From a virus: a stretch of DNA of 64,000 nucleotides. The notes beneath the pieces are model-generated. The model did not search any database. It was not told where the DNA came from and saw only the letters and a list, made by a program, of their open reading frames with translations. Below are positions 5,580-54,823 of the stretch, piece by piece. The stretch spans positions 1-64,000 of the IMG/VR virus record IMGVR_UViG_3300024999_000004; one strand, given 5' to 3'. The translations under genes and the position numbers were made by a program. The first letter of the stretch is position 1. Every line of letters begins with the position of its first letter.

Positions 5580-6410
5580 TCAACTTGTCGCCCGCACAAC
5601 AATACTTGCAATGAACTCCTGCCCATTCGGCGTATACCTCGGAGCCCCTACAAACTTGACTGAGGAGGTAGCCTCAGTATAAGGGTTCGGCCATGTAAAA
5701 GCAACCGTTCCGTGCAAGGTATCGTACCTCCAGAACTCGTCCAACAATACTTTCATCGCTTTGTCCACAGCATACGCACAAGTATAGCTCGCGGGAGACC
5801 ATGTATGCCGGACCCGGATCTTGTCATAGCCTGTATCCATCTTCGACCTTATGGTTCTGGGAGGAATGGCTTCGGATGCGGAAATCGGAAATTGCGGAAG
5901 TACAACGTAGGCGGAAGGCGACAAATAGATTCCCATGAAATCGGCAGGCATAAGCACAGAAGAATACCGCCTGAACTCGTCGATGACGCCGTTGCTGTTG
6001 CTTGTAGGGCTCAAGGTCCCCGAAGGAGCCAAAGTGGCGGAAGGAGCCAACGTTGCGGAGGGCGCAAGACCCGCAGTAGCGTACACGAATCCAGCGGGGC
6101 CGTTTCCGAGTACTCCTGTCGGGTAGGTGGTTTGGTCAAGAAATACAGCAGAACTCAATACAGGGAGGCCGTTGGCATAGACAGAGAGATTGGTTCCCGA
6201 TCTCGTATAGCCTAAAGAGTACCACGTAGCGTCAGCCATCACCGTCTGCGGAGAGGGGGCCGTGAAGGCTCCGTTTATTATGGCCCCGAGGTATCTGGTC
6301 GTCGGGTGGATTGCGAGGGGGCAATCATGCCGAAGCAATGGGGAGGTGAGGATTCGGTAGCTTCCTGCTACGTTGGTGCCTTTGTAGGAGAAGACTATGG
6401 ATTCAGACAT
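5580..6410 (-). CDS. Tail protein: C-terminal part of a LamG/ConA domain plus a Dit-like domain
   Basis: WYSLGYTRSGTNLSVYANG...GVIDEFRRYSSVL (LamG) followed by IRSKMDTG...FTWPNP...VKF...P (Dit-like); internal LAPSAT repeats. Confidence 0.7.
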   Translation of the reverse strand: MSESIVFSYKGTNVAGSYRILTSPLLRHDCPLAIHPTTRYLGAIINGAFTAPSPQTVMADATWYSLGYTRSGTNLSVYANGLPVLSSAVFLDQTTYPTGVLGNGPAGFVYATAGLAPSATLAPSATLAPSGTLSPTSNSNGVIDEFRRYSSVLMPADFMGIYLSPSAYVVLPQFPISASEAIPPRTIRSKMDTGYDKIRVRHTWSPASYTCAYAVDKAMKVLLDEFWRYDTLHGTVAFTWPNPYTEATSSVKFVGAPRYTPNGQEFIASIVVRATS

Positions 6411-6423
6411 TATGATACTCCAC

Positions 6424-7911
6424 TCACGATATCCTCTTCACGAGTACGGTAAGGTTTGCGCTCGCGGTTCCTGTTGCGGCGGCTCCGGCTGCGGTGGTCC
6501 CGAGCTTGACGGAGTTGATCGTGGCACCGTAGGTAAGGATCGTCCAGAAGTAGGTTCCGGAGCCTGCGGGCATTGTCAGAGTGCCTCCGCTTGCCACGTC
6601 TATCGCCGTCTGGTAGCCAACGGAACCTGCGGTGACTATGCTCGCAGGGTCCGTGCTTGCGAGGAATCCTGTACTGCTGTAGACGGCACGCGCATTCGGA
6701 ACCGCCGTCGCCGCGTCAATAACGGCACTGGGCTTGAAGGCTCCGGGGTTCTGGTACAGGGACCAGATTTCCTCTGCGGAGAGGGCGCGGTTGTAGATGC
6801 GGGGGTCGGTCTCTGTTGTTTCTACTAAACCAAAATTGCTGGTAGCTTGGTAGCACCCAAAATAGAGGGTTCCCGTTGTGGGAATCACGGGAGTGGTCAA
6901 TGTCGTTGTCCCGAAGTATACCCCGTTACGGTATGCCAGCACTACTCCGGTGGACCAGTTAATTACTATGCCATATGTCATTGCCGTAGTATCAAAGGAT
7001 GTAAAAAAGCTGCTGAAACTGTACTCCACTCTGGCAGATCCATTCCAGTAACTCAGGATCAGGTTGTTCGTGCTCAGAGCACGATATACCCATAAATGCG
7101 CCCCGGACACGGCCCCGACATTCAATATTCCTACTGACTGGACAGCACCAACCCCACCGGAAATTTTCCATGAGTGAAAACAAAAAACAGATGGCATGAT
7201 GAAATTATCTACCTTCGTGTAATCATTTGTTCCGTCCCGCCTCAGCCCCCTCCCCGCCATCGTATTGACCGGAGTCGCACCGTACACCGTGCCGTGGTTC
7301 CCGGAGCCCGAGGCATCAAGGGCAAGGGAGGAGTAGGTGCCGTCGCCGACGTAGATGAAAGACACGGATACCGGATTTGCATTGTTTGTCGTAGAGTTGA
7401 AAAGCAACTCTACGTCAGTAAAACTGGCTCCGGTGGTGATGTCAGTGACTCCGCTCGTCTGCCCCGCGATGGATTTGGTGACATGCGTCCCCGCTCCCGA
7501 GGTCCCTATCTCAAGAGTCGTCAGATCAGTTTGGGCGCAAGACCATTTGACGCGCACGGTTTTCGACGACACCGCGAGAGCTTTGTTCGCGCGAACAAAT
7601 GTTGTCGGGGCCGCTCCTGCGGTAAGCACCAATTTGTCAGAAGCGGCGGTGACGACGGTATCCGTCCCCATCGTGGCCCAGCCGTCCACGGTCGAGAACT
7701 TGATAGTCAGATAGGTAGGGGAAGGCCCATCCGGCCACTCGGGCAGGCCCCCGAGGGCAGGGGCGCAGATGAGGCCGGAGAGGAGGGATTTCTGTTCGTT
7801 CAATCTGTCCACCGTATCAACCATGGCGTTAAGATTCAATTCATCCACAGGTACGGTGAAACTATCATTATCGAAGACTCCGGGCTTTGTTCCGACCCAA
7901 GGTGTTGCCAT
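6424..7911 (-). CDS. LamG/concanavalin-like domain tail protein (putative receptor binding)
   Basis: ALDASGSGNHGTVYGAT...DGTNDY...AYRNG...RIYNRALSAEEIWSLY is a LamG-3 signature. Confidence 0.8.
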   Translation of the reverse strand: MATPWVGTKPGVFDNDSFTVPVDELNLNAMVDTVDRLNEQKSLLSGLICAPALGGLPEWPDGPSPTYLTIKFSTVDGWATMGTDTVVTAASDKLVLTAGAAPTTFVRANKALAVSSKTVRVKWSCAQTDLTTLEIGTSGAGTHVTKSIAGQTSGVTDITTGASFTDVELLFNSTTNNANPVSVSFIYVGDGTYSSLALDASGSGNHGTVYGATPVNTMAGRGLRRDGTNDYTKVDNFIMPSVFCFHSWKISGGVGAVQSVGILNVGAVSGAHLWVYRALSTNNLILSYWNGSARVEYSFSSFFTSFDTTAMTYGIVINWSTGVVLAYRNGVYFGTTTLTTPVIPTTGTLYFGCYQATSNFGLVETTETDPRIYNRALSAEEIWSLYQNPGAFKPSAVIDAATAVPNARAVYSSTGFLASTDPASIVTAGSVGYQTAIDVASGGTLTMPAGSGTYFWTILTYGATINSVKLGTTAAGAAATGTASANLTVLVKRIS

Positions 7912-7933
7912 ATACTCACTCTCCTAAAAATCG

Positions 7934-8146
7934 CTACAAAAGTATTCTTGACGCAGCGTTCGTAAAATCTCCGCCGTTCCCGCTTATTCCTTCAACGAGA
8001 GCCACGGAAGTCACGGTGCCATCGTCATCATATCCCGAATCGTCCTGCCCCGCAACAACGTTGAAGGAGAAATACTGTACCAGATTTGGTACGGAGACTT
8101 CAGCTCCCGATATCAGGCGTGCTGCGAGATCATAGGGCCAGTCCAT
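7934..8146 (-). CDS. Short tail ORF: Dit-like WP start plus N-terminal strands of a LamG domain
   Basis: MDWPYDL...LVQYFSFN...DDSGYDDDGT...GISGNGGDF; RBS AAGGAG. Confidence 0.65.
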   Translation of the reverse strand: MDWPYDLAARLISGAEVSVPNLVQYFSFNVVAGQDDSGYDDDGTVTSVALVEGISGNGGDFTNAASRILL

Positions 8147-40141: not shown

Positions 40142-40345
40142 TTGATGGAAGCCAAGATGCACGAAGGCAGAAAAGAAGTTAAGGTATTGAAAGTTCCGGA
40201 GGGCGATGATTTTGTTCTCGGCTTGCCGCGTTACTTCGTCCGGGACCTGCACAACCGGGGAGTGGAGTATGTACGTTTCACTGTGAAAGGGGCAGTCATA
40301 ACCATCGAGCCAATGAACCCCGGATTCCTTGCTCCCTCTCATTGA
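40142..40345 (+). CDS. AbrB/SpoVT-like DNA-binding protein
   Basis: KVLKV..GDDFVLGLPR.FVRDL...VRFTV.G..ITIEP swapped-hairpin pattern. Confidence 0.65.
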   Translation: MMEAKMHEGRKEVKVLKVPEGDDFVLGLPRYFVRDLHNRGVEYVRFTVKGAVITIEPMNPGFLAPSH

Positions 40346-40606: not shown

Positions 40607-40635
40607 TTGACATAACATCTATTGTATGATAAGAT
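40607..40635 (+). promoter_or_regulatory. Sigma70 promoter
   Basis: TTGACA-17-TAAGAT, extended -10 TG. Confidence 0.75.
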
Positions 40636-46015: not shown

Positions 46016-46081
46016 GGAAAAGGCCGGAGCGCCCCTTCCGAGCAAACGGCGGGGGCGCTATTTTTGCAAAGGAGTAAATCA

Positions 46082-48277
46082 ATGGAATTCAAGCAGTTCA
46101 AGAAGGCTCTTCAGGACCACGTTGCGGTTATGTTGTCAGGAGGGGATCAGCTCTTCCTTGTCAATATCCCCGACTTTCCCCCTGTGCCGGGGAACACCGC
46201 ACCCGGGGCCAATTCTCGCCTGTGGAACACCTACCTCAACACCTTCCCCGCAGGCACCAACGAAATCTTCCGCGAGCGAAGGGAGTACGATTGCAGTGCC
46301 TGCAGATCCTTCATCAAGGAGCACAACGGCACCGGGCTCTCCTCCGGGGGTATCGGCAACGTAGTCACGATCAAGGAAGGGAAGATAACTTCCATTTGGG
46401 ACTTCTGGGATTCCTTGCCCGAAGACAGCGAGTACAAGCCCTCGGTAAAAGCAATGTCCGCTATCGTGCGTCATGCTGCCATGGCCGAGGACGGGATCTC
46501 CGATGTCTTTGTCTATCAGTCCCCCTCCTTCGGCATCGACAAGAACAGGGAGGAGGCCACAGACGGGAGTATCCTCACTTGGGAGCACCTGCACGTGAAG
46601 CTCCCTCCCGCCTACGCTTCCAAATGCTCCTCTTCCGTCGCCCCCGCGACAGCGGCCTTCCGCGACGCCCGCAACGTCTTCAAGCGTTCCCTGGACGAGA
46701 TCACCATCGATTCCACAGAGACCGTGCTCGAACTCATCGCATCCAATTCCCTGTACAAAGGAGAGGAAAATACCGGCCTTCTTCAGGCCTTCCTTGCCCT
46801 CCAGAAGGAGTACAACAACCTTCATGCGGATGGTCCTGCGCGTTCCCTGTACGCTTGGGAGAAATCCGTCCTCATAGGACCCGCGCTCGCCAAGATCCGG
46901 AATCACGCCATCGGGACGCTCCTGACCGACATATCCTGCGGAGTAGACTTGGACGAAGCCGTCCGCAAGTTCGAGGCCATGGTCGCCCCCGCCAACTACA
47001 AGCGGCCCAAGGCCATCTATACACAGGCGATGCTCAAAGCTGCCGAGGAGACCGTCTCCTCCCTCGGGTATTTTCCTTCCCTGAAGCGCCGCCATGCGAA
47101 GCTGGACGACATCTCGGTCGGCAACGTTTTGTTTGCCGACCGAGATGCCGCGCCCTTGATAGCAGGGGACGTATTTTCCTCCATGAAGGAAGAAGCCGCT
47201 GCGGTAAACCCCAAGAACTTCTCCAAGGTGGAGGAAGTGGGCATCGATACCTTCGTATCCGACATCCTGCCGTCCTCGGCTTCCTGTTCCCTGCTTCTCG
47301 AAGCCCGCCATTGCGGCAACCTCGTCTCCCTCATCGCCCCCGAGGATAAGGACGCGCCTTCCATGTTCAAATGGCCCAACGGCTTCTCCTGGGCCTACGC
47401 GGGCAACATGGCCGATTCCATGAAGCAAAGGGTCAAGGAAGCCGGAGGGAAAGTGGACGGGGACCTCCGATTCTCGATCCAGTGGAACGATGACCCACAG
47501 AATCCTTTGGCTGACCAGAATGATCTGGACGCGCACTGCATCGAACCCGGAGGCAATGAAATCTACTACGGCACGGCGAAGGGCAGAGCCATTCATCGCT
47601 CGGGAGGAGAGCTGGACGTGGATATCCGCGTTCCCGGAATGTCTGTCGCCGTGGAGAACATCACGTGGCCGGACAGGGACCGGATGCCCGAGGGTGTCTA
47701 CAAGTTGTTCGTCCGTAATTTCGACCATCGCGGAGGCAGGACCGGCTTCAAGGCCGAGGTCGAATTCGACGGCCAGATTCATTCCTTTGTCTACGGGAAG
47801 GAAGTGAAGCAAGCCCAGAACGTTCAGGTAGCCGAGGTGATGTACAGCAGATTGGGGGGTTTTGATATCGTCGAGAAGATTCCCTCCGAACTGGGGGCGG
47901 GCTCTTCCCGCAAGGTGTGGGGCGTCAACACCAATACCTTTGTTCCCGTGGTCGCGGCCATGCACAGCCCGAATTTCTGGCTTGATTTCTCCAGTGATGA
48001 AGCAGAGCGGGCCTTACGAACGGGAGTCGGCAACAAGCACTTCTTCTTCATGCTCAAAGGTTGCGTCAATCCCGAGCAGCCCAACGGCTTCTTCAACGAG
48101 TACCTGAAGGAAGAGTTGATGCAGCACAAGCGGGTCTTCGAGGCCCTGGGCGCGAGGATGAAGGTGGCGGAGAGTCCTGATCAGCTCTCGGGAGTTGGAT
48201 TCAGCTCCACGCAGAGGAACCATTTCTTTGCGAAAGTAGAGGGTCGGGTGGCTCGGGTTCTCAAGGTCATGGTTTGA
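46082..48277 (+). CDS. Large conserved phage protein with C-terminal YfaP/TerD-like beta domain
   Basis: LW..YL..FP.G.N.IFR.R.EYDC..CR.FI; KRR.A; LRFSIQWN...DLDAHC.EP...LDVD...AVENITW; QLSG.GFS.T. Confidence 0.75.
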   Translation: MEFKQFKKALQDHVAVMLSGGDQLFLVNIPDFPPVPGNTAPGANSRLWNTYLNTFPAGTNEIFRERREYDCSACRSFIKEHNGTGLSSGGIGNVVTIKEGKITSIWDFWDSLPEDSEYKPSVKAMSAIVRHAAMAEDGISDVFVYQSPSFGIDKNREEATDGSILTWEHLHVKLPPAYASKCSSSVAPATAAFRDARNVFKRSLDEITIDSTETVLELIASNSLYKGEENTGLLQAFLALQKEYNNLHADGPARSLYAWEKSVLIGPALAKIRNHAIGTLLTDISCGVDLDEAVRKFEAMVAPANYKRPKAIYTQAMLKAAEETVSSLGYFPSLKRRHAKLDDISVGNVLFADRDAAPLIAGDVFSSMKEEAAAVNPKNFSKVEEVGIDTFVSDILPSSASCSLLLEARHCGNLVSLIAPEDKDAPSMFKWPNGFSWAYAGNMADSMKQRVKEAGGKVDGDLRFSIQWNDDPQNPLADQNDLDAHCIEPGGNEIYYGTAKGRAIHRSGGELDVDIRVPGMSVAVENITWPDRDRMPEGVYKLFVRNFDHRGGRTGFKAEVEFDGQIHSFVYGKEVKQAQNVQVAEVMYSRLGGFDIVEKIPSELGAGSSRKVWGVNTNTFVPVVAAMHSPNFWLDFSSDEAERALRTGVGNKHFFFMLKGCVNPEQPNGFFNEYLKEELMQHKRVFEALGARMKVAESPDQLSGVGFSSTQRNHFFAKVEGRVARVLKVMV

Positions 48278-48783: not shown

Positions 48784-48812
48784 TTGACATCCAATCTCTG
48801 ATGTGATACACT
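48784..48812 (+). promoter_or_regulatory. Sigma70 promoter heading the kinase/vWA/AdSS operon
   Basis: TTGACA-17-TACACT, extended -10 TG. Confidence 0.75.
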
Positions 48813-48834
48813 ATCTCTATATGGAGGCCCTAAG

Positions 48835-49227
48835 ATGAAGCACCAGCTCTACAAGAAACAACCGAAGTCGAAGAAAACAAAGAAAGGCACCTACCCCAAG
48901 CTTTACCTCGAAGCGGAAGGCCCCGGCAGGAAGGAAACCCGGAAGCGTTGGAGCATGGCCGGACGCATGTCCTCTACGGGAAAGTTCTTCGGCGGAGTCA
49001 AACCCAAAGCGCTCGCGGGCGAGTTCCTCATGAACAGGTACCTCTCAGGGCGGAACATGGCCTCCTTCCCCTCGTGGTTCGGGTGGAAGAAGAGTTCCAC
49101 GATATCCGCCGCCTCCGGGGGGAAGGATGAATACAGGGAGCGGATGAAGGCGGCGCGGGGGCGGTCGTGGTGGTACGATAAAAGGACGGTGCGGCATCCT
49201 GCTCCGGTGCGGAAGGCTTCAGTCTAG
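48835..49227 (+). CDS. Highly basic hypothetical protein
   Basis: RBS GGAGG; K/R-rich. Confidence 0.6.
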   Translation: MKHQLYKKQPKSKKTKKGTYPKLYLEAEGPGRKETRKRWSMAGRMSSTGKFFGGVKPKALAGEFLMNRYLSGRNMASFPSWFGWKKSSTISAASGGKDEYRERMKAARGRSWWYDKRTVRHPAPVRKASV

Positions 49228-49268
49228 GAGCCCGGATTCTTTGCACCACGAAGGAAGGAGACCTGAAG

Positions 49269-50267
49269 ATGCTCGCAGCCAAAGCCATACTTGCAGCAAA
49301 GAAACCTGAAGACATCTTCTCTTCTCCTGCCTCTGAAGATTCCTTGAAGAAGGAATTCCGGGCTTTGGCGAAGAAGTGGCATCCTGATGCTTCCGCCTCA
49401 CCCCACGTCTCCTTAAACGGTGAAGTGTTCTCCCACATTGCCTCATTGTACGGAAAGGGCCTTGACAAGATTGCTTCAGGCACTTGGGGCGCGGAGGGGT
49501 TGCTCGTATTGGCGGGCAAGAAATACCCCTACCTGTCTAGTTCCCCCACGGATTCCGGAGATGTCTTTGTCGGTGATTCTTTCCTCGCTTACTTTGTGAA
49601 GAAGGAGTATTTCTCTCTCCTGAAGAACATCCCTATGTTGAAGTACAAGGATTCTTCCATGGAAAAGGAGATGAGTCGTTTCTTTGGGAGGGAAATATCC
49701 GCAACCGCCATAGCGAGGGCCTCCGCACCTGACGGCACCTACCTCCTTTACGAGAAACAGAAGGGTGAGTTTCTTCTCTCCGACGTTGTAAAAGCAGGCA
49801 CCATTCCCCCCAAACAAGCGGCATGGATTCTCAGTCGCTTGTACAACATCTCCTGCTATCTTCAATGGAGCGGCCTCGTTCATTGCGACATCAATAGCGG
49901 CACGATCTTGATTGACCCCGCGAACCACGGACTCCGGCTTGTAGGTGGCTGGTGGAACTGCCACAAGGAAGGAGAGCACCTCTCTTCCTTGCCTTCCAAG
50001 ACGTACTCCGTGCTCCCGCAGCGGCTTCTTGAAAAGAAGGAAGCTGTTCACGTTTTCGTGCAGGAGCAGATAAAGGCGGCGGGGAGGGAGATATTTACCG
50101 GGTCGGATGTTCCTGCGGCAATCAGGAATTTCCTCGAACTACCATGTGCCTCGGACAAGTCAGCGCAGTTTTATTTCTCGAAGTGGTATGAGGATATTCT
50201 TGGCAAGGCCTTCGGCCCGAAGAAATTCGTGCCCTGGGATCTTTCGGACAAGGATGTGTACAAGTAA
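49269..50267 (+). CDS. J-domain (HPD) fused to an atypical protein-kinase-like domain
   Basis: LKKEFRALAKKWHPD; AAWILSRL...LVHCDINSGTILID...LVGGWW. Confidence 0.75.
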   Translation: MLAAKAILAAKKPEDIFSSPASEDSLKKEFRALAKKWHPDASASPHVSLNGEVFSHIASLYGKGLDKIASGTWGAEGLLVLAGKKYPYLSSSPTDSGDVFVGDSFLAYFVKKEYFSLLKNIPMLKYKDSSMEKEMSRFFGREISATAIARASAPDGTYLLYEKQKGEFLLSDVVKAGTIPPKQAAWILSRLYNISCYLQWSGLVHCDINSGTILIDPANHGLRLVGGWWNCHKEGEHLSSLPSKTYSVLPQRLLEKKEAVHVFVQEQIKAAGREIFTGSDVPAAIRNFLELPCASDKSAQFYFSKWYEDILGKAFGPKKFVPWDLSDKDVYK

Positions 50268-50320
50268 GTACTCCCGTACGGGGGTGCTGAGTTTTCTGAT
50301 CAGTGAGAAGGAGTAACATT

Positions 50321-50449
50321 ATGGGTTTGGGAATTGACGAGGGATTCAAGGATTACGGCAGTGCCGAAGCGTCCGTGCAGGCTGCCCCGGTAGCCACAGA
50401 AACCGCCGCAGAAGAAGCCACAGAAACCGCCGTGGAAGGGGAGGCCTGA
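50321..50449 (+). CDS. 42-aa acidic peptide MGLGIDEGFKDYGSAEASVQAAPVATETAAEEATETAVEGEA
   Basis: RBS AAGGAG; stop 1 nt before the vWA start; below the ORF-track cut-off. Confidence 0.65.
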   Translation: MGLGIDEGFKDYGSAEASVQAAPVATETAAEEATETAVEGEA

Positions 50450-50450
50450 T

Positions 50451-51377
50451 ATGGGAGGAGGAAGCTGGAGCCCGAGTTCATGGGCCACTCACGCAACCGC
50501 TACCGCGTCGATGTCGCGCTCGGCATTGTACTCAAGCCGGGGCATCAAGAAGGAACTTGACCCCAAGGGCGTTGCCGTCAGGGAATCCCGGGACTCCACG
50601 GAGCACCCTGAATCGACGGCCATTGCCGTGTTCCTCGATGTCACCGGGTCCATGGGGTTCATCGCGGAGAAGATCGCCAAGGAGGGCCTCGGAACCTTGT
50701 TCCAGGAAATCCTGGACCGCAAGCCCGTGCCCGATCCGCAGCTCCTGTTCGGGGCCATCGGCGACGTAAGGTGCGACAGCGCCCCGCTTCAGGTGTCCCA
50801 GTTCGAGTCCGACAACAGGATCGTGGAACAGCTCACCGGCATCTACCTCGAAAGCGGCGGCGGCGGAAACGACACGGAAAGCTACGATTTCCCTTGGTAC
50901 TTCGCGGCAAAGCACATGGCCGCAGATTGCTTCGAGAAGCGTGGCAAGAAGGGTTATTTGTTTACCGTCGGCGACGAGTCCACCCCCGCAGGAATCTCCC
51001 CGGAGCATCTGAAGGAGTTCCTCGGCAGCGCAGAAGAAATCACCGAGGAACTTTCCGCCGAGGAGCTTCTGGCCATGGCGGAGAAGAAGTGGAACTGCTA
51101 TCACATCATCGTCGAGGAAGGGAACTATTGCAGCTTGCGCGGGCGTGATGCCGTCCTCCGCAAGTGGCAGGATCTCATGGGCCAGCGGGCCGTTCCCCTT
51201 TCTGACTACACCAAGCTTCCTGAAGTCATCATCTCCCTGATCCAGCTTTCCGAAGGAGCTGACAAGAAGAAGGTGGTGGATTCGTGGGACGGTTCAACGT
51301 CGGTAGCGGTCGCCGCTGCTTTGGACGGGATAGTAGCCCGCTCGGGCGGCTCGGGCGCGGGCATGGTCGCCCTTTAG
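50451..51377 (+). CDS. vWA-domain protein
   Basis: MIDAS-like LDVTGSMG; AIGD; ESGGGGN..ESY; FTVGDE. Confidence 0.85.
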   Translation: MGGGSWSPSSWATHATATASMSRSALYSSRGIKKELDPKGVAVRESRDSTEHPESTAIAVFLDVTGSMGFIAEKIAKEGLGTLFQEILDRKPVPDPQLLFGAIGDVRCDSAPLQVSQFESDNRIVEQLTGIYLESGGGGNDTESYDFPWYFAAKHMAADCFEKRGKKGYLFTVGDESTPAGISPEHLKEFLGSAEEITEELSAEELLAMAEKKWNCYHIIVEEGNYCSLRGRDAVLRKWQDLMGQRAVPLSDYTKLPEVIISLIQLSEGADKKKVVDSWDGSTSVAVAAALDGIVARSGGSGAGMVAL

Positions 51378-51394
51378 GACATAAGGAGAATCGA

Positions 51395-52564
51395 ATGAAA
51401 GGAATCGCCGTCATAGGAGCCAACTACGGAGACGAGGGGAAGGGTCTTATGACGGACTTCCTTTGTGCAAGGGAAGCCAAAGCAGGAAAGCAGGTATTCG
51501 TTGTCCGGCACAACGGAGGCGCACAGGCGGGGCATACTGTGGTGGCTCCTGCCTCAGAGGGGGGCTTCCGGCATGTCTTCCATCACTTTGGTAGTGGAAC
51601 CCTGCAAAGCATCCCCACAATCCTCGCCAAGGATTTCATTCTCAACCCCATATTGTTCCGGAAGGAATACGAGGAGCTTGAAGCTGCGGGGTACGCTCCC
51701 GAGGTTTTCGTAGACGTAAGATGCCGGATAACAACTCCGTGGGACATGGTGTACAACCAAGCACAGGAGGAAGCTAGGTCCCCCGCTGTGGCGGGAGGAG
51801 AGCGGCACGGAAGCTGTGGCGTCGGAATCAACGCCACGGTGGACAGGAATGAGGTGATTCCTTTCACTCGTGAGTCGGGTTGCCTGAGTTCGTTGGAGAG
51901 GATATCCGGGCACTACAAAAACAAGATGTTCCCTGCAGGGGTGCCATCAGAAGCCGAGAATTCTCGATTTTTTATGTCTCCGGGACTGGAAGAGGTGGGC
52001 CACGCATTCAGCTCTGATCTGTACTTCCTGATTAGGCACACTTCCGTCATGGATTATCCTCTTTGTCAACACCCCAATGCGGACAGCTTCACCTTCATCT
52101 TCGAAGGAGCCCAGGGCCTCGGACTCGATGAATATATGGGCTCCTACCCCCATGTCACGAGGTCCAATACGGGCCTGCGGAACGTCGTCGATTTCTGCCG
52201 GGAGCACAAGATAGACCTTGACGAGATTGTCTACGTGACCCGGAGCTACCTCACGAGGCACGGGAATGGGCCCATGGAAGGAACCCTATATTCTGAAGAA
52301 GCGTATTTCGAGGACAAGACGAATGTTCCGAACCCGTGGCAAGGGACTCTTCGTCAGAGTGCCATGGATGAGGAAGCCTACTTCAATATGGCGGAAAGAG
52401 TTGCATGGGATACTCAGTCAGTGGGAATGGGAAGCAAGCCGATATCTTTGGCTATCACTCACAATGACCAATTAACGTCCGAAGATTGGGAGTACTCACT
52501 TATTCCTGTCAAGTACAAAAGCTTCGGGGAGACGAGGGAAGATGTGAAGGAGACCAAAAAATGA
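51395..52564 (+). CDS. Divergent adenylosuccinate-synthetase-like protein
   Basis: GANYGDEGKG, RHNGGAQAGHTV, HGSCGVGI, FEGAQG..LD, YPHVTRSNTG, YVTRSYLTRHGNGP. Confidence 0.85.
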   Translation: MKGIAVIGANYGDEGKGLMTDFLCAREAKAGKQVFVVRHNGGAQAGHTVVAPASEGGFRHVFHHFGSGTLQSIPTILAKDFILNPILFRKEYEELEAAGYAPEVFVDVRCRITTPWDMVYNQAQEEARSPAVAGGERHGSCGVGINATVDRNEVIPFTRESGCLSSLERISGHYKNKMFPAGVPSEAENSRFFMSPGLEEVGHAFSSDLYFLIRHTSVMDYPLCQHPNADSFTFIFEGAQGLGLDEYMGSYPHVTRSNTGLRNVVDFCREHKIDLDEIVYVTRSYLTRHGNGPMEGTLYSEEAYFEDKTNVPNPWQGTLRQSAMDEEAYFNMAERVAWDTQSVGMGSKPISLAITHNDQLTSEDWEYSLIPVKYKSFGETREDVKETKK

Positions 52565-52836
52565 ACAAAACGCCTGTTACTGAACAGGAAATAAAAGAAA
52601 TATTCCACTCTTTCCTTCGAAGTAGAATTTCTGCAGGTGGATGGGAAGGCTATGCTTATACTGAATTCTGGAAATACCGAAGCGCATGCAACGAATTTCT
52701 CGAAGAACATGGTTATAAAGCCAGTTGGGCGTACTTTGAACAAACCCTGTGGGGTAATGGTGGGTGGGGGTACAAGGACAAGATGGCTTGCTACTTGCGG
52801 GTAGTCCCTGCCCACAGTCACTGTGAGACCAAGTAA
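52561..52836 (+). CDS. Hypothetical protein
   Basis: ATGA coupling; RBS AAGGAG. Confidence 0.55.
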   Translation: MNKTPVTEQEIKEIFHSFLRSRISAGGWEGYAYTEFWKYRSACNEFLEEHGYKASWAYFEQTLWGNGGWGYKDKMACYLRVVPAHSHCETK

Positions 52837-54259: not shown

Positions 54260-54823
54260 ATGAAATCAAAACGTATGGCTTTATTTCTGGCAGTGGTATT
54301 AATGGCCTCCCGGGCATTCGCCTCCCCTCCCGAGCTTCCGCAGCACCCTCAACCTTTGTCAGAGCCCTATTACTCTTTCGTGATCGATCTCTGCACCAAA
54401 AATCATCTGGCTTCCACCTACACCCTGAACCTGATATGGGCCGAGAGCCTTAACAACCCGAAAGCCGAGAACTGGAACTACCGGTGGATCAATACTTCCA
54501 ACACAGGAAAAGACGGGAAAACAAAATGGATATGGCGCTATCTCCCCGTATCTTGGGATCGTGGATTCTTCCAGCTCAATCAGGACTCCCTCCCCGATTT
54601 CTCTGTCCGATACAATGGAGGGAAGCCCATAGATCCTTTTGACTGGAAGACCAACCTGAGAGTGGGGATAGCCCATCTCGCATATTGCAGGAAAATGACG
54701 GGATCGATGTTCGGAGCCGTGGCATCCATGAACATGGGGGAGAGGGGGTATGCCGAGTGGCTGGAAGGGAAGAGGGAGATGAGGTACTCGACCAAGAGGT
54801 TGTTGGAACTGGTGTTTCAGTAA
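54260..54823 (+). CDS. Lytic transglycosylase (SLT) with signal peptide
   Basis: IWAES (catalytic Glu), DRGFFQLN, DPFD...NLRVG..HL, AVASMNMG. Confidence 0.8.
   Translation: MKSKRMALFLAVVLMASRAFASPPELPQHPQPLSEPYYSFVIDLCTKNHLASTYTLNLIWAESLNNPKAENWNYRWINTSNTGKDGKTKWIWRYLPVSWDRGFFQLNQDSLPDFSVRYNGGKPIDPFDWKTNLRVGIAHLAYCRKMTGSMFGAVASMNMGERGYAEWLEGKREMRYSTKRLLELVFQ

Follow-up and report, generated by a model that had tools for sequence, protein, structure and literature searches.

We analyzed a gene cassette in a 64,000-nucleotide stretch of viral DNA, referred to here as the window, which comprises positions 1 to 64,000 of the IMG/VR virus record IMGVR_UViG_3300024999_000004. The source record is a complete genome of 93.6 kb with direct terminal repeats, and no near relative of this phage was found in the isolate-phage collection. 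Four genes lie in a row on the plus strand. They code for a 332-amino-acid protein in which a J-domain is predicted to be joined to a protein-kinase-like fold (a putative pseudokinase; positions 49269 to 50267), an acidic peptide of 42 amino acids (50321 to 50449), a 308-amino-acid protein with a von Willebrand factor A (vWA) fold and a metal ion-dependent adhesion site (MIDAS; 50451 to 51377), and an adenylosuccinate synthetase (PurA)-like enzyme of 389 amino acids (51395 to 52564). A preliminary description of this DNA, made from the letters alone, had located the same four genes on this strand, and every motif that it quoted is present. We propose that the J-domain pseudokinase, the MIDAS vWA protein, and the remodeled adenylosuccinate synthetase paralogue form a widespread cassette that may carry out an altered purine-nucleotide ligation, a proposal that we judge to have about an even chance of being right.

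We assigned the start of the PurA-like gene to the ATG at position 51395, behind the ribosome-binding site AGGAGA; starts at 51392 or 51284 were rejected in its favor. The encoded enzyme contains the motifs GDEGKG, AQAGHT, HGSCGVG, and TRHGNGP and matches PF00709 with an expect value (E) of 1.8e-37, covering profile positions 1 to 278 of 416. On the NCBIfam models, it reached 104 bits for PurA (cut-off, 402) and 48 bits for PurZ (cut-off, 300). We built a quick maximum-likelihood tree from six canonical PurA proteins, 58 vWA-linked sequences (phage, bacterial, and mycobacteriophage), and the PurZ of phage phiVC8. The canonical PurA proteins formed one clade (support, 98) and all 58 vWA-linked sequences another (support, 96), while phiVC8 PurZ fell far outside both as a distant outgroup. 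Moreover, a full-length canonical purA was present elsewhere in all five of the cassette-bearing bacterial genomes that were checked.

To compare active sites, we placed 156 members of the family on the residue numbering of E. coli PurA. For the roles of the residues we relied on the E. coli structures: Asp13 is presumably the catalytic base, Thr301, Arg303, and Arg305 are taken to line the L-aspartate pocket, Asn38, Thr129, and Arg143 (from the partner subunit) to clamp the 5'-phosphate of inosine monophosphate (IMP), and Asp333 to read guanine. The chemistry core was kept, with Asp13, Gln224, and Thr239 found in 156 of 156 members, His41 in 155 of 156, and Lys16 invariant; the window enzyme itself has Asp13, His41, and Gln224. 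The aspartate pocket was changed: Thr301 is replaced by Gln in 156 of 156, position 303 holds Ser, Thr, Ala, or Asn, and Arg305 is deleted. The IMP-phosphate clamp was altered as well (Asn38 to Gln in 152 of 156, Thr129 to Cys in 141 of 156, and Arg143 not conserved), with Thr239 retained. Two further substitutions are specific to the family, Val273 to His in 156 of 156 and Gly298 to Asn in 147 of 156. The members fall into two subfamilies, a J-type comprising the window enzyme and the bacterial copies, which keeps Asp333, and a second type whose partner is a protein of about 213 amino acids (see below) and which mostly has Asn at this position. Since the new pocket residues are invariant and the catalytic core is intact, the alignment points to a changed substrate rather than decay. 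By these measures the enzyme appears to be neither housekeeping PurA nor PurZ but a member of a clade of its own.

This outcome agrees with the preliminary description, which had held that the enzyme is not PurZ and that it diverges from housekeeping PurA, and which had proposed a phylogeny against both. The first statement is borne out by an Asp where phiVC8 PurZ has Ser, by the low PurZ score, and by the distance from phiVC8 PurZ in the tree; the second is borne out by a score below the PurA cut-off, the separate clade of the vWA-linked sequences, the replaced aspartate pocket, and the coexistence with a normal purA. Because the enzyme is neither of the two, altered purine-nucleotide ligation, which had also been favored there over a simple supply of adenosine monophosphate (AMP), is the best reading of the data.

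The same residues bear on a more conventional role, in which the protein would be a divergent but functional adenylosuccinate synthetase that raises the flux from IMP to AMP during infection, with the vWA protein and the J-pseudokinase serving as stabilizing or regulatory subunits. An invariant P-loop, Asp13, His41, and Gln224 would be expected of such an enzyme, as would the guanine-reading Asp333 kept in the window subfamily, and large phages often carry genes of nucleotide metabolism; in Vibrio phage phiKT1024, the cassette adjoins ribonucleotide reductase. However, the aspartate-binding residues have all been replaced by other invariant residues, the score lies far under the PurA equivalog cut-off, and the sequences form a separate clade. 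Furthermore, cassette-bearing bacteria keep a normal purA, no PurB-type lyase was found in the window phage, and we know of no obligate vWA partner for PurA. The cassette is probably not a housekeeping source of AMP, and we consider AMP supply during infection unlikely.

The heavy changes in the substrate pockets could also be explained if the PurA-like protein had lost its ligase function and now served the vWA protein as a nucleotide-dependent switch or chaperone. Pairs of a P-loop NTPase and a vWA protein recur elsewhere, as in NorQ/NorD and other MoxR/VWA systems, and offer an analogy. Against this stands the near-perfect retention of residues that serve purine activation only: the Asp13 base, Gln224, and His41 are invariant in 155 to 156 of the 156 members, which is unexpected for a plain GTPase, and the fold is not that of an AAA+ protein. 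We regard a switch of this kind as highly improbable.

The vWA protein showed no match to Pfam or NCBIfam, and PHROG 2971, for which no function is annotated, was its sole family match. Its AlphaFold2 (AF2) model had a predicted local distance difference test score (pLDDT) of 92.5, and Foldseek matched it to the vWA domains of integrin beta-I, Ku80, and CMG2 with a probability of 1.0. The MIDAS residues, a D-x-T-x-S variant of the motif, were invariant in 68 homologues (D63-x-T65-G-S67, N140/E143, and T172-x-G-D175). The DVTGS MIDAS read previously is therefore present in this protein, and model and alignment back both the vWA fold and the metal site. A search of 1.84 billion representative proteins with the vWA profile returned 892 clusters, at 50% identity, with an E value of 1e-30 or less. 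In the Bixzunavirus Blackbrain, the vWA gene (gene 260; L088:2203-3987) is interrupted by an intein (Hint module) inserted after the residues KGY, just before the MIDAS segment T-x-G-D-E. The intein occurs in the vWA protein of many Bixzunavirus mycobacteriophages and is missing from other members of the cluster, and the metagenome protein set holds a second intein-bearing vWA homologue (P0134).

We examined the linkage of the genes in phages using 80 viral contigs that had been retrieved through the PurA-like protein. In 77 of these, the PurA-like gene was immediately preceded by a vWA homologue; two of the three exceptions were cut by the end of the contig. The distance from the vWA stop to the PurA-like start was mostly -7 to +25 nucleotides (nt). 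For the clustering of neighboring genes, we combined the 80 contigs with three named-phage records and the window, which gave 84 phage loci. The gene upstream of vWA came in two mutually exclusive forms: a protein of about 213 amino acids in 63 of the 84 loci and the J-pseudokinase in 13, including the window. The 213-amino-acid protein (e.g., L039:4433-5074) has a Met-rich tail and matched no Pfam or PHROG family; its consensus was read as a beta-rich N-terminal domain followed by a Met-rich, GroEL-tail-like C terminus.

Among named phages, Vibrio phage phiKT1024 and Rhizobium phage RHph_Y65 carry the vWA and PurA-like pair in the same order. In mycobacteriophage Blackbrain, the order is kinase, intein-split vWA, and PurA-like, with the annotations "serine/threonine kinase," "hypothetical protein," and "PurA-like"; these three genes are homologues of the three window genes, and the set is present in about 200 mycobacteriophages. 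Across the phage collection, the vWA protein matched 219 records and the PurA-like enzyme 238. The surplus of enzyme matches consists of Listeria, Staphylococcus, Acinetobacter, Salmonella, and unnamed phage records without a vWA gene. Some Acinetobacter and Salmonella phages carry PurZ. Pairwise identities of the vWA proteins and of the PurA-like proteins were correlated (r = 0.79; 144 paired loci).

We then turned to bacteria and scanned species-representative genomes with the vWA profile, which yielded at least 564 stretches, of which 80 were kept for analysis. The PurA-like gene was the next gene downstream of vWA in 78 of the 80 loci, and the J-pseudokinase gene was next upstream in 61. 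Carriers included Competibacter, Massilia, Acetobacter, Paracoccus, Inquilinus, Melainabacteria, Clostridia, Acidobacteria, and others; isolates carrying the cassette belonged to Massilia, Acetobacter, and Paracoccus. The flanks of the cassette were non-phage-like in the three isolate genomes in which we annotated them. We regard the cassette as accessory, since the genus of one carrier had the vWA gene in just 5 of 61 genomes. One bacterial locus (L150) has two tandem copies of vWA (6001 to 6978 and 6991 to 7992) ahead of the PurA-like gene.

The linkage of these genes is far beyond chance, phages and bacteria alike pass the three of them on as a unit, and the cassette is not phage-specific. 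The preliminary description had named a lack of joint conservation as an outcome that would count against its reading; we found the genes kept together in both settings. It had also proposed a use in counter-defense or host takeover. As worded, that proposal found no support here, and since the triad resides in the chromosomes of many bacterial phyla, it is not the sole candidate role.

A gene coding for a regulator with a Nudix domain and an NrtR-type winged helix adjoins the operon in 42 of the 80 bacterial loci, mostly in divergent orientation. The bacterial neighbor family p199 was discarded, as it consists of shadow open reading frames on the regulator gene. In Acetobacter malorum (L153:3070-3777), the cassette regulator has an AbiEii-type toxin gene two genes away, a weak hint of a defense-island setting.

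The regulator points to a signal related to ADP-ribose or nicotinamide adenine dinucleotide (NAD), and an NAD- or ADP-ribose-linked nucleotide conversion in phage-host conflict is our leading guess for the biological role. Stated in full, the cassette would convert or rebuild a purine nucleotide arising from the breakdown of NAD+ or ADP-ribose, acting in salvage or as a guard; the NrtR-type sensor would switch it on in bacteria, and phages would use it to counter immunity that depletes NAD or ATP. In addition to the adjacent regulator, the patchy distribution within a genus and the setting in RHph_Y65 speak for this account; there, genes with the annotations phosphoribosyltransferase-like protein and nicotinamide mononucleotide (NMN) adenylyltransferase/Nudix precede the module by four genes (about 2.7 kb). 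However, we looked for nicotinate phosphoribosyltransferase, Nudix, and NMN adenylyltransferase genes in the window phage and found none, and homologues of the Rhizobium phage NAD genes occurred in only 1 to 2 of the 84 phage loci. Moreover, regulators with Nudix and winged-helix domains can sense other ligands, and no known chemistry ties a PurA-type reaction to NAD. In this full form, the account is unlikely.

The first protein of the triad contains an HPD motif at residues 38 to 40 as well as the motifs VHCDIN and GGWW. Pfam DnaJ matched it with an E value of 5e-5 and 23.8 bits, just under the gathering cut-off of 27.8, and a PHROG annotated as "kinase" matched with an E value of 1.7e-5. 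Pfam Pkinase recognized the mycobacteriophage homologue of the gene (E, 2e-9). The top PDB match of the AF2 model (pLDDT, 88) was the DnaJB1-PKA chimera 4wb7, which confirms the fusion of a J-domain to a protein-kinase fold. Across 21 aligned homologues, H38 and P39 of the J-domain were invariant and W37 and D40 were conserved in at least 90%. The kinase-like part had conserved GGWW, an AW pair, and a His. None of the beta3 Lys, the catalytic-loop Asp, and the DFG Asp was conserved; the Asp of the HCD in the window protein is lineage specific, and GGWW stands in place of DFG. Because these three catalytic residues are not conserved, the protein is probably a pseudokinase scaffold with a J-domain that looks functional. 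An intact HPD, an HCD, and a GGW replacing DFG had all been reported for this gene and are present in it. Conversely, the kinase control that had been suggested for the system is unlikely, as the catalytic residues are not conserved across the family. No Hsp70 gene was found in the window phage, and the putative partner of the J-domain would therefore be the DnaK of the host.

The best start for the acidic peptide is the ATG at position 50321, which gives 42 amino acids (N terminus, MGLGIDEGF) and a stop 1 nt before the vWA ATG. The reading frame is conserved in L180 and L181. A metagenomic relative with 80% identity keeps the ribosome-binding site, the first 14 or so residues, the acidic tail, and a stop codon that precedes the vWA start by 1 nt, and the indel that separates the two reading frames is 9 nt long and in frame. 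This pattern of conservation argues that the peptide is a real open reading frame in the window lineage. We searched the other J-type loci for it and found it absent; unrelated genes have been inserted into the corresponding gaps. One J-type viral contig (L005:4593-5072) has an inserted 159-amino-acid open reading frame, a candidate homing endonuclease, in the interval from the pseudokinase gene to vWA.

The conserved N terminus of the peptide (MG-x-G) resembles that of the vWA protein, where an MG-x-G-x-W motif is nearly invariant. Among the 150 best vWA representatives, with starts taken from independent gene callers, 142 begin with MG, and aromatic residues occupy positions 6, 11, and 14. 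The MG start is found likewise in phage and bacterial loci. A Gly after the initiator Met favors removal of the Met, which leaves a free glycine amine. The MG start fits a vWA N terminus that may serve as the amine substrate of the enzyme. In this form of ligation, an N-terminal purinylation, the free alpha-amine of vWA Gly2 would replace aspartate and be joined to C6 of IMP to give an N6-linked AMP tag, and the 42-amino-acid peptide may be a second substrate. The loss of the carboxylate-binding arginines from the pocket would suit such an acceptor, as do the near-universal MG start in phages and bacteria alike and the likeness of the peptide to the vWA start. On the other hand, a fixed N terminus can be structural, and the peptide is absent from other lineages. 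The vWA N terminus hardly varies, which makes covariation uninformative, and an inter-protein mutual-information scan over the 144 paired loci picked up subfamily (clade) signal alone and gave no information on contacts. We consider N-terminal purinylation quite unlikely. An extension of it, in which the vWA Gly and perhaps also that of the peptide are joined to the purine C6, the nucleotide-binding pocket of the pseudokinase reads the resulting tag, and the J-domain hands the complex to DnaK, is very unlikely. Ligation to a protein or peptide, which had been raised in the preliminary description, is in general terms a candidate reaction.

Altered purine-nucleotide ligation by the cassette could proceed as follows. 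With guanosine triphosphate (GTP) as phosphate donor, the enzyme would activate a purine nucleotide by phosphorylation of its 6-oxo group and would then couple an amine to it. This amine would be something other than free L-aspartate, or the acceptor would be held differently. The vWA protein would be an obligate partner of the enzyme that presents or regulates the substrate via its metal site and its fixed N terminus. The J-pseudokinase would act as a noncatalytic adaptor that recruits host DnaK; in most phages, another small protein occupies its position.

Several points weigh against this proposal. The substrate, nucleophile, and product are read from residue conservation on E. coli PurA numbering, with residue roles taken from the PurA structures. 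The catalytic core is fully intact, and ordinary IMP and aspartate chemistry may take place in a differently built pocket. The natural vWA-PurA-like and kinase-vWA "fusions" that we encountered (P0131 to P0133) have Arg-rich linkers and an internal MG start and come from GC-rich contigs; we rejected them as likely frameshift or read-through artifacts. Finally, the NAD link draws on the adjacent regulator in 42 of the 80 bacterial loci, and such a link is absent from the window phage and rare in the sampled phage loci.

Further features surround the cassette in the window. A sigma-70-like site on the plus strand (positions 48784 to 48812; TTGACA-17-TACACT with TG, 10 of 12 positions) is predicted as a promoter from its match to the consensus. 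The promoter of the preliminary description stands as such a match, but it is one of three related sites: a promoter-like element of about 31 nt (TTGACAT..N..TGATA..AT) occurs at 40607, 45583, and 48784, and each copy heads a successive plus-strand gene block. The first gene after it, between the promoter and the J gene, is a basic open reading frame of 130 amino acids with a GGAGG ribosome-binding site (48835 to 49227, plus strand), for which no relatives were found; the preliminary description had left it out. It was present in none of the related loci and is therefore outside the conserved cassette. Just 5' of the J-pseudokinase gene lies a dispersed 21-nt element (49227 to 49247, plus strand), a member of a repeat family with four copies between 36 and 56 kb. 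Copies of this 21- to 27-nt element (GGAGCCCGGATTCT..) start at 40315, 41315, 44208, and 49227, the last of them 22 nt upstream of the J-pseudokinase start. Immediately 3' of the J-pseudokinase stop, the plus-strand sequence can form a stem-loop (50267 to 50288). The 80%-identical relative has it too; by eye, its stem bases are changed and pairing is still possible.

Downstream, the ATG of a 91-amino-acid open reading frame (52561 to 52836, plus strand) overlaps the PurA-like stop as ATGA. It matched no family and was not enriched 3' of the PurA-like gene across the phage loci. Farther away, positions 54260 to 54823 code for a 187-amino-acid protein with a lytic transglycosylase (SLT) domain (E, 6e-8) and an N terminus that by eye resembles a signal peptide. 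Upstream of the cassette, positions 46064 to 48277 code for a 737-amino-acid protein of PHROG 1735 (function not annotated; E, 7e-236); in two viral contigs (L053 and L084), PHROG 1735 homologues are likewise found no more than a few kb from the cassette. A PADLOC search gave no match for the vWA protein or the PurA-like enzyme and only a weak match for the kinase gene (PD-T4-6; E, 1e-3).

A full-text literature search found no description of this cassette. PurA is a textbook enzyme of purine metabolism, and the case of PurZ made clear that its phage paralogues are able to alter DNA chemistry. The cassette enzyme would add a third large branch of the PurA family, with a rebuilt substrate pocket and a fixed linkage with a vWA protein and a pseudokinase that would recruit chaperones. 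As the enzyme is conserved in tractable phages and isolates, it could reveal a new nucleotide, a protein modification, or a layer of phage-host conflict over nucleotides. If true, N-terminal glycine ligation would represent a hitherto unknown type of protein modification.

Compared with PurA (EC 6.3.4.4; E. coli, PDB 1ADE/1GIM family), the cassette enzyme shares the fold, the P-loop GDEGKG, Asp13, Lys16, His41, Gln224, and Thr239, as well as Asp333 in the window subfamily. It differs in a replaced aspartate loop and in part of the IMP-phosphate clamp (Gln38, Cys129, His273, Asn298, and Gln301), and Arg143, Arg303, and Arg305 are lost. It also lacks about 70 C-terminal residues and has an obligate vWA neighbor. 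PurA homologues of the ToyG type, from deazapurine antibiotic pathways, act on a modified purine nucleotide, pair with a PurB-like lyase of their own, and retain aspartate as a substrate. They resemble the cassette enzyme in being PurA paralogues, whereas the cassette comes without a lyase and its aspartate pocket is gone.

PurZ and PurZ0 of the phage 2-aminoadenine pathway are, like the cassette enzyme, phage PurA paralogues with a changed substrate and a shortened C-terminal region. The hallmark of PurZ is Ser14, at the position of PurA Asp13, which admits the 2-amino group, and phage enzymes other than PurZ have been treated simply as PurA (bioRxiv 10.1101/2025.10.22.683976). The cassette enzyme has Asp at this position, whereas phiVC8 PurZ has Ser. 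No vWA partner of PurZ was found in phiVC8.

The TerY-P triad consists of the vWA protein TerY, a Ser/Thr kinase, and a PP2C phosphatase, and Deinococcus DRA0331-0334 is reportedly a similar vWA-kinase operon. The cassette resembles the triad in having a vWA gene beside a kinase-fold gene. However, its kinase fold is devoid of catalytic residues and carries a J-domain, and its third member is PurA-like. Clustering of the neighbors in the 84 phage and 80 bacterial loci, which did not include a PP2C-specific scan, gave no further recurrent neighbor family besides the NrtR-like regulator, and hence no PP2C or FHA partner. The comparison with Ter and vWA-kinase systems made in the preliminary description fails on this point, as no PP2C phosphatase recurs among the clustered neighbors. 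Finally, the MoxR AAA+/vWA pairs (NorQ/NorD and CbbQ/CbbO) likewise couple an NTPase gene to a MIDAS vWA gene. They differ from the cassette in their AAA+ ring, whereas the cassette NTPase has the PurA fold, with its purine-activating residues intact.

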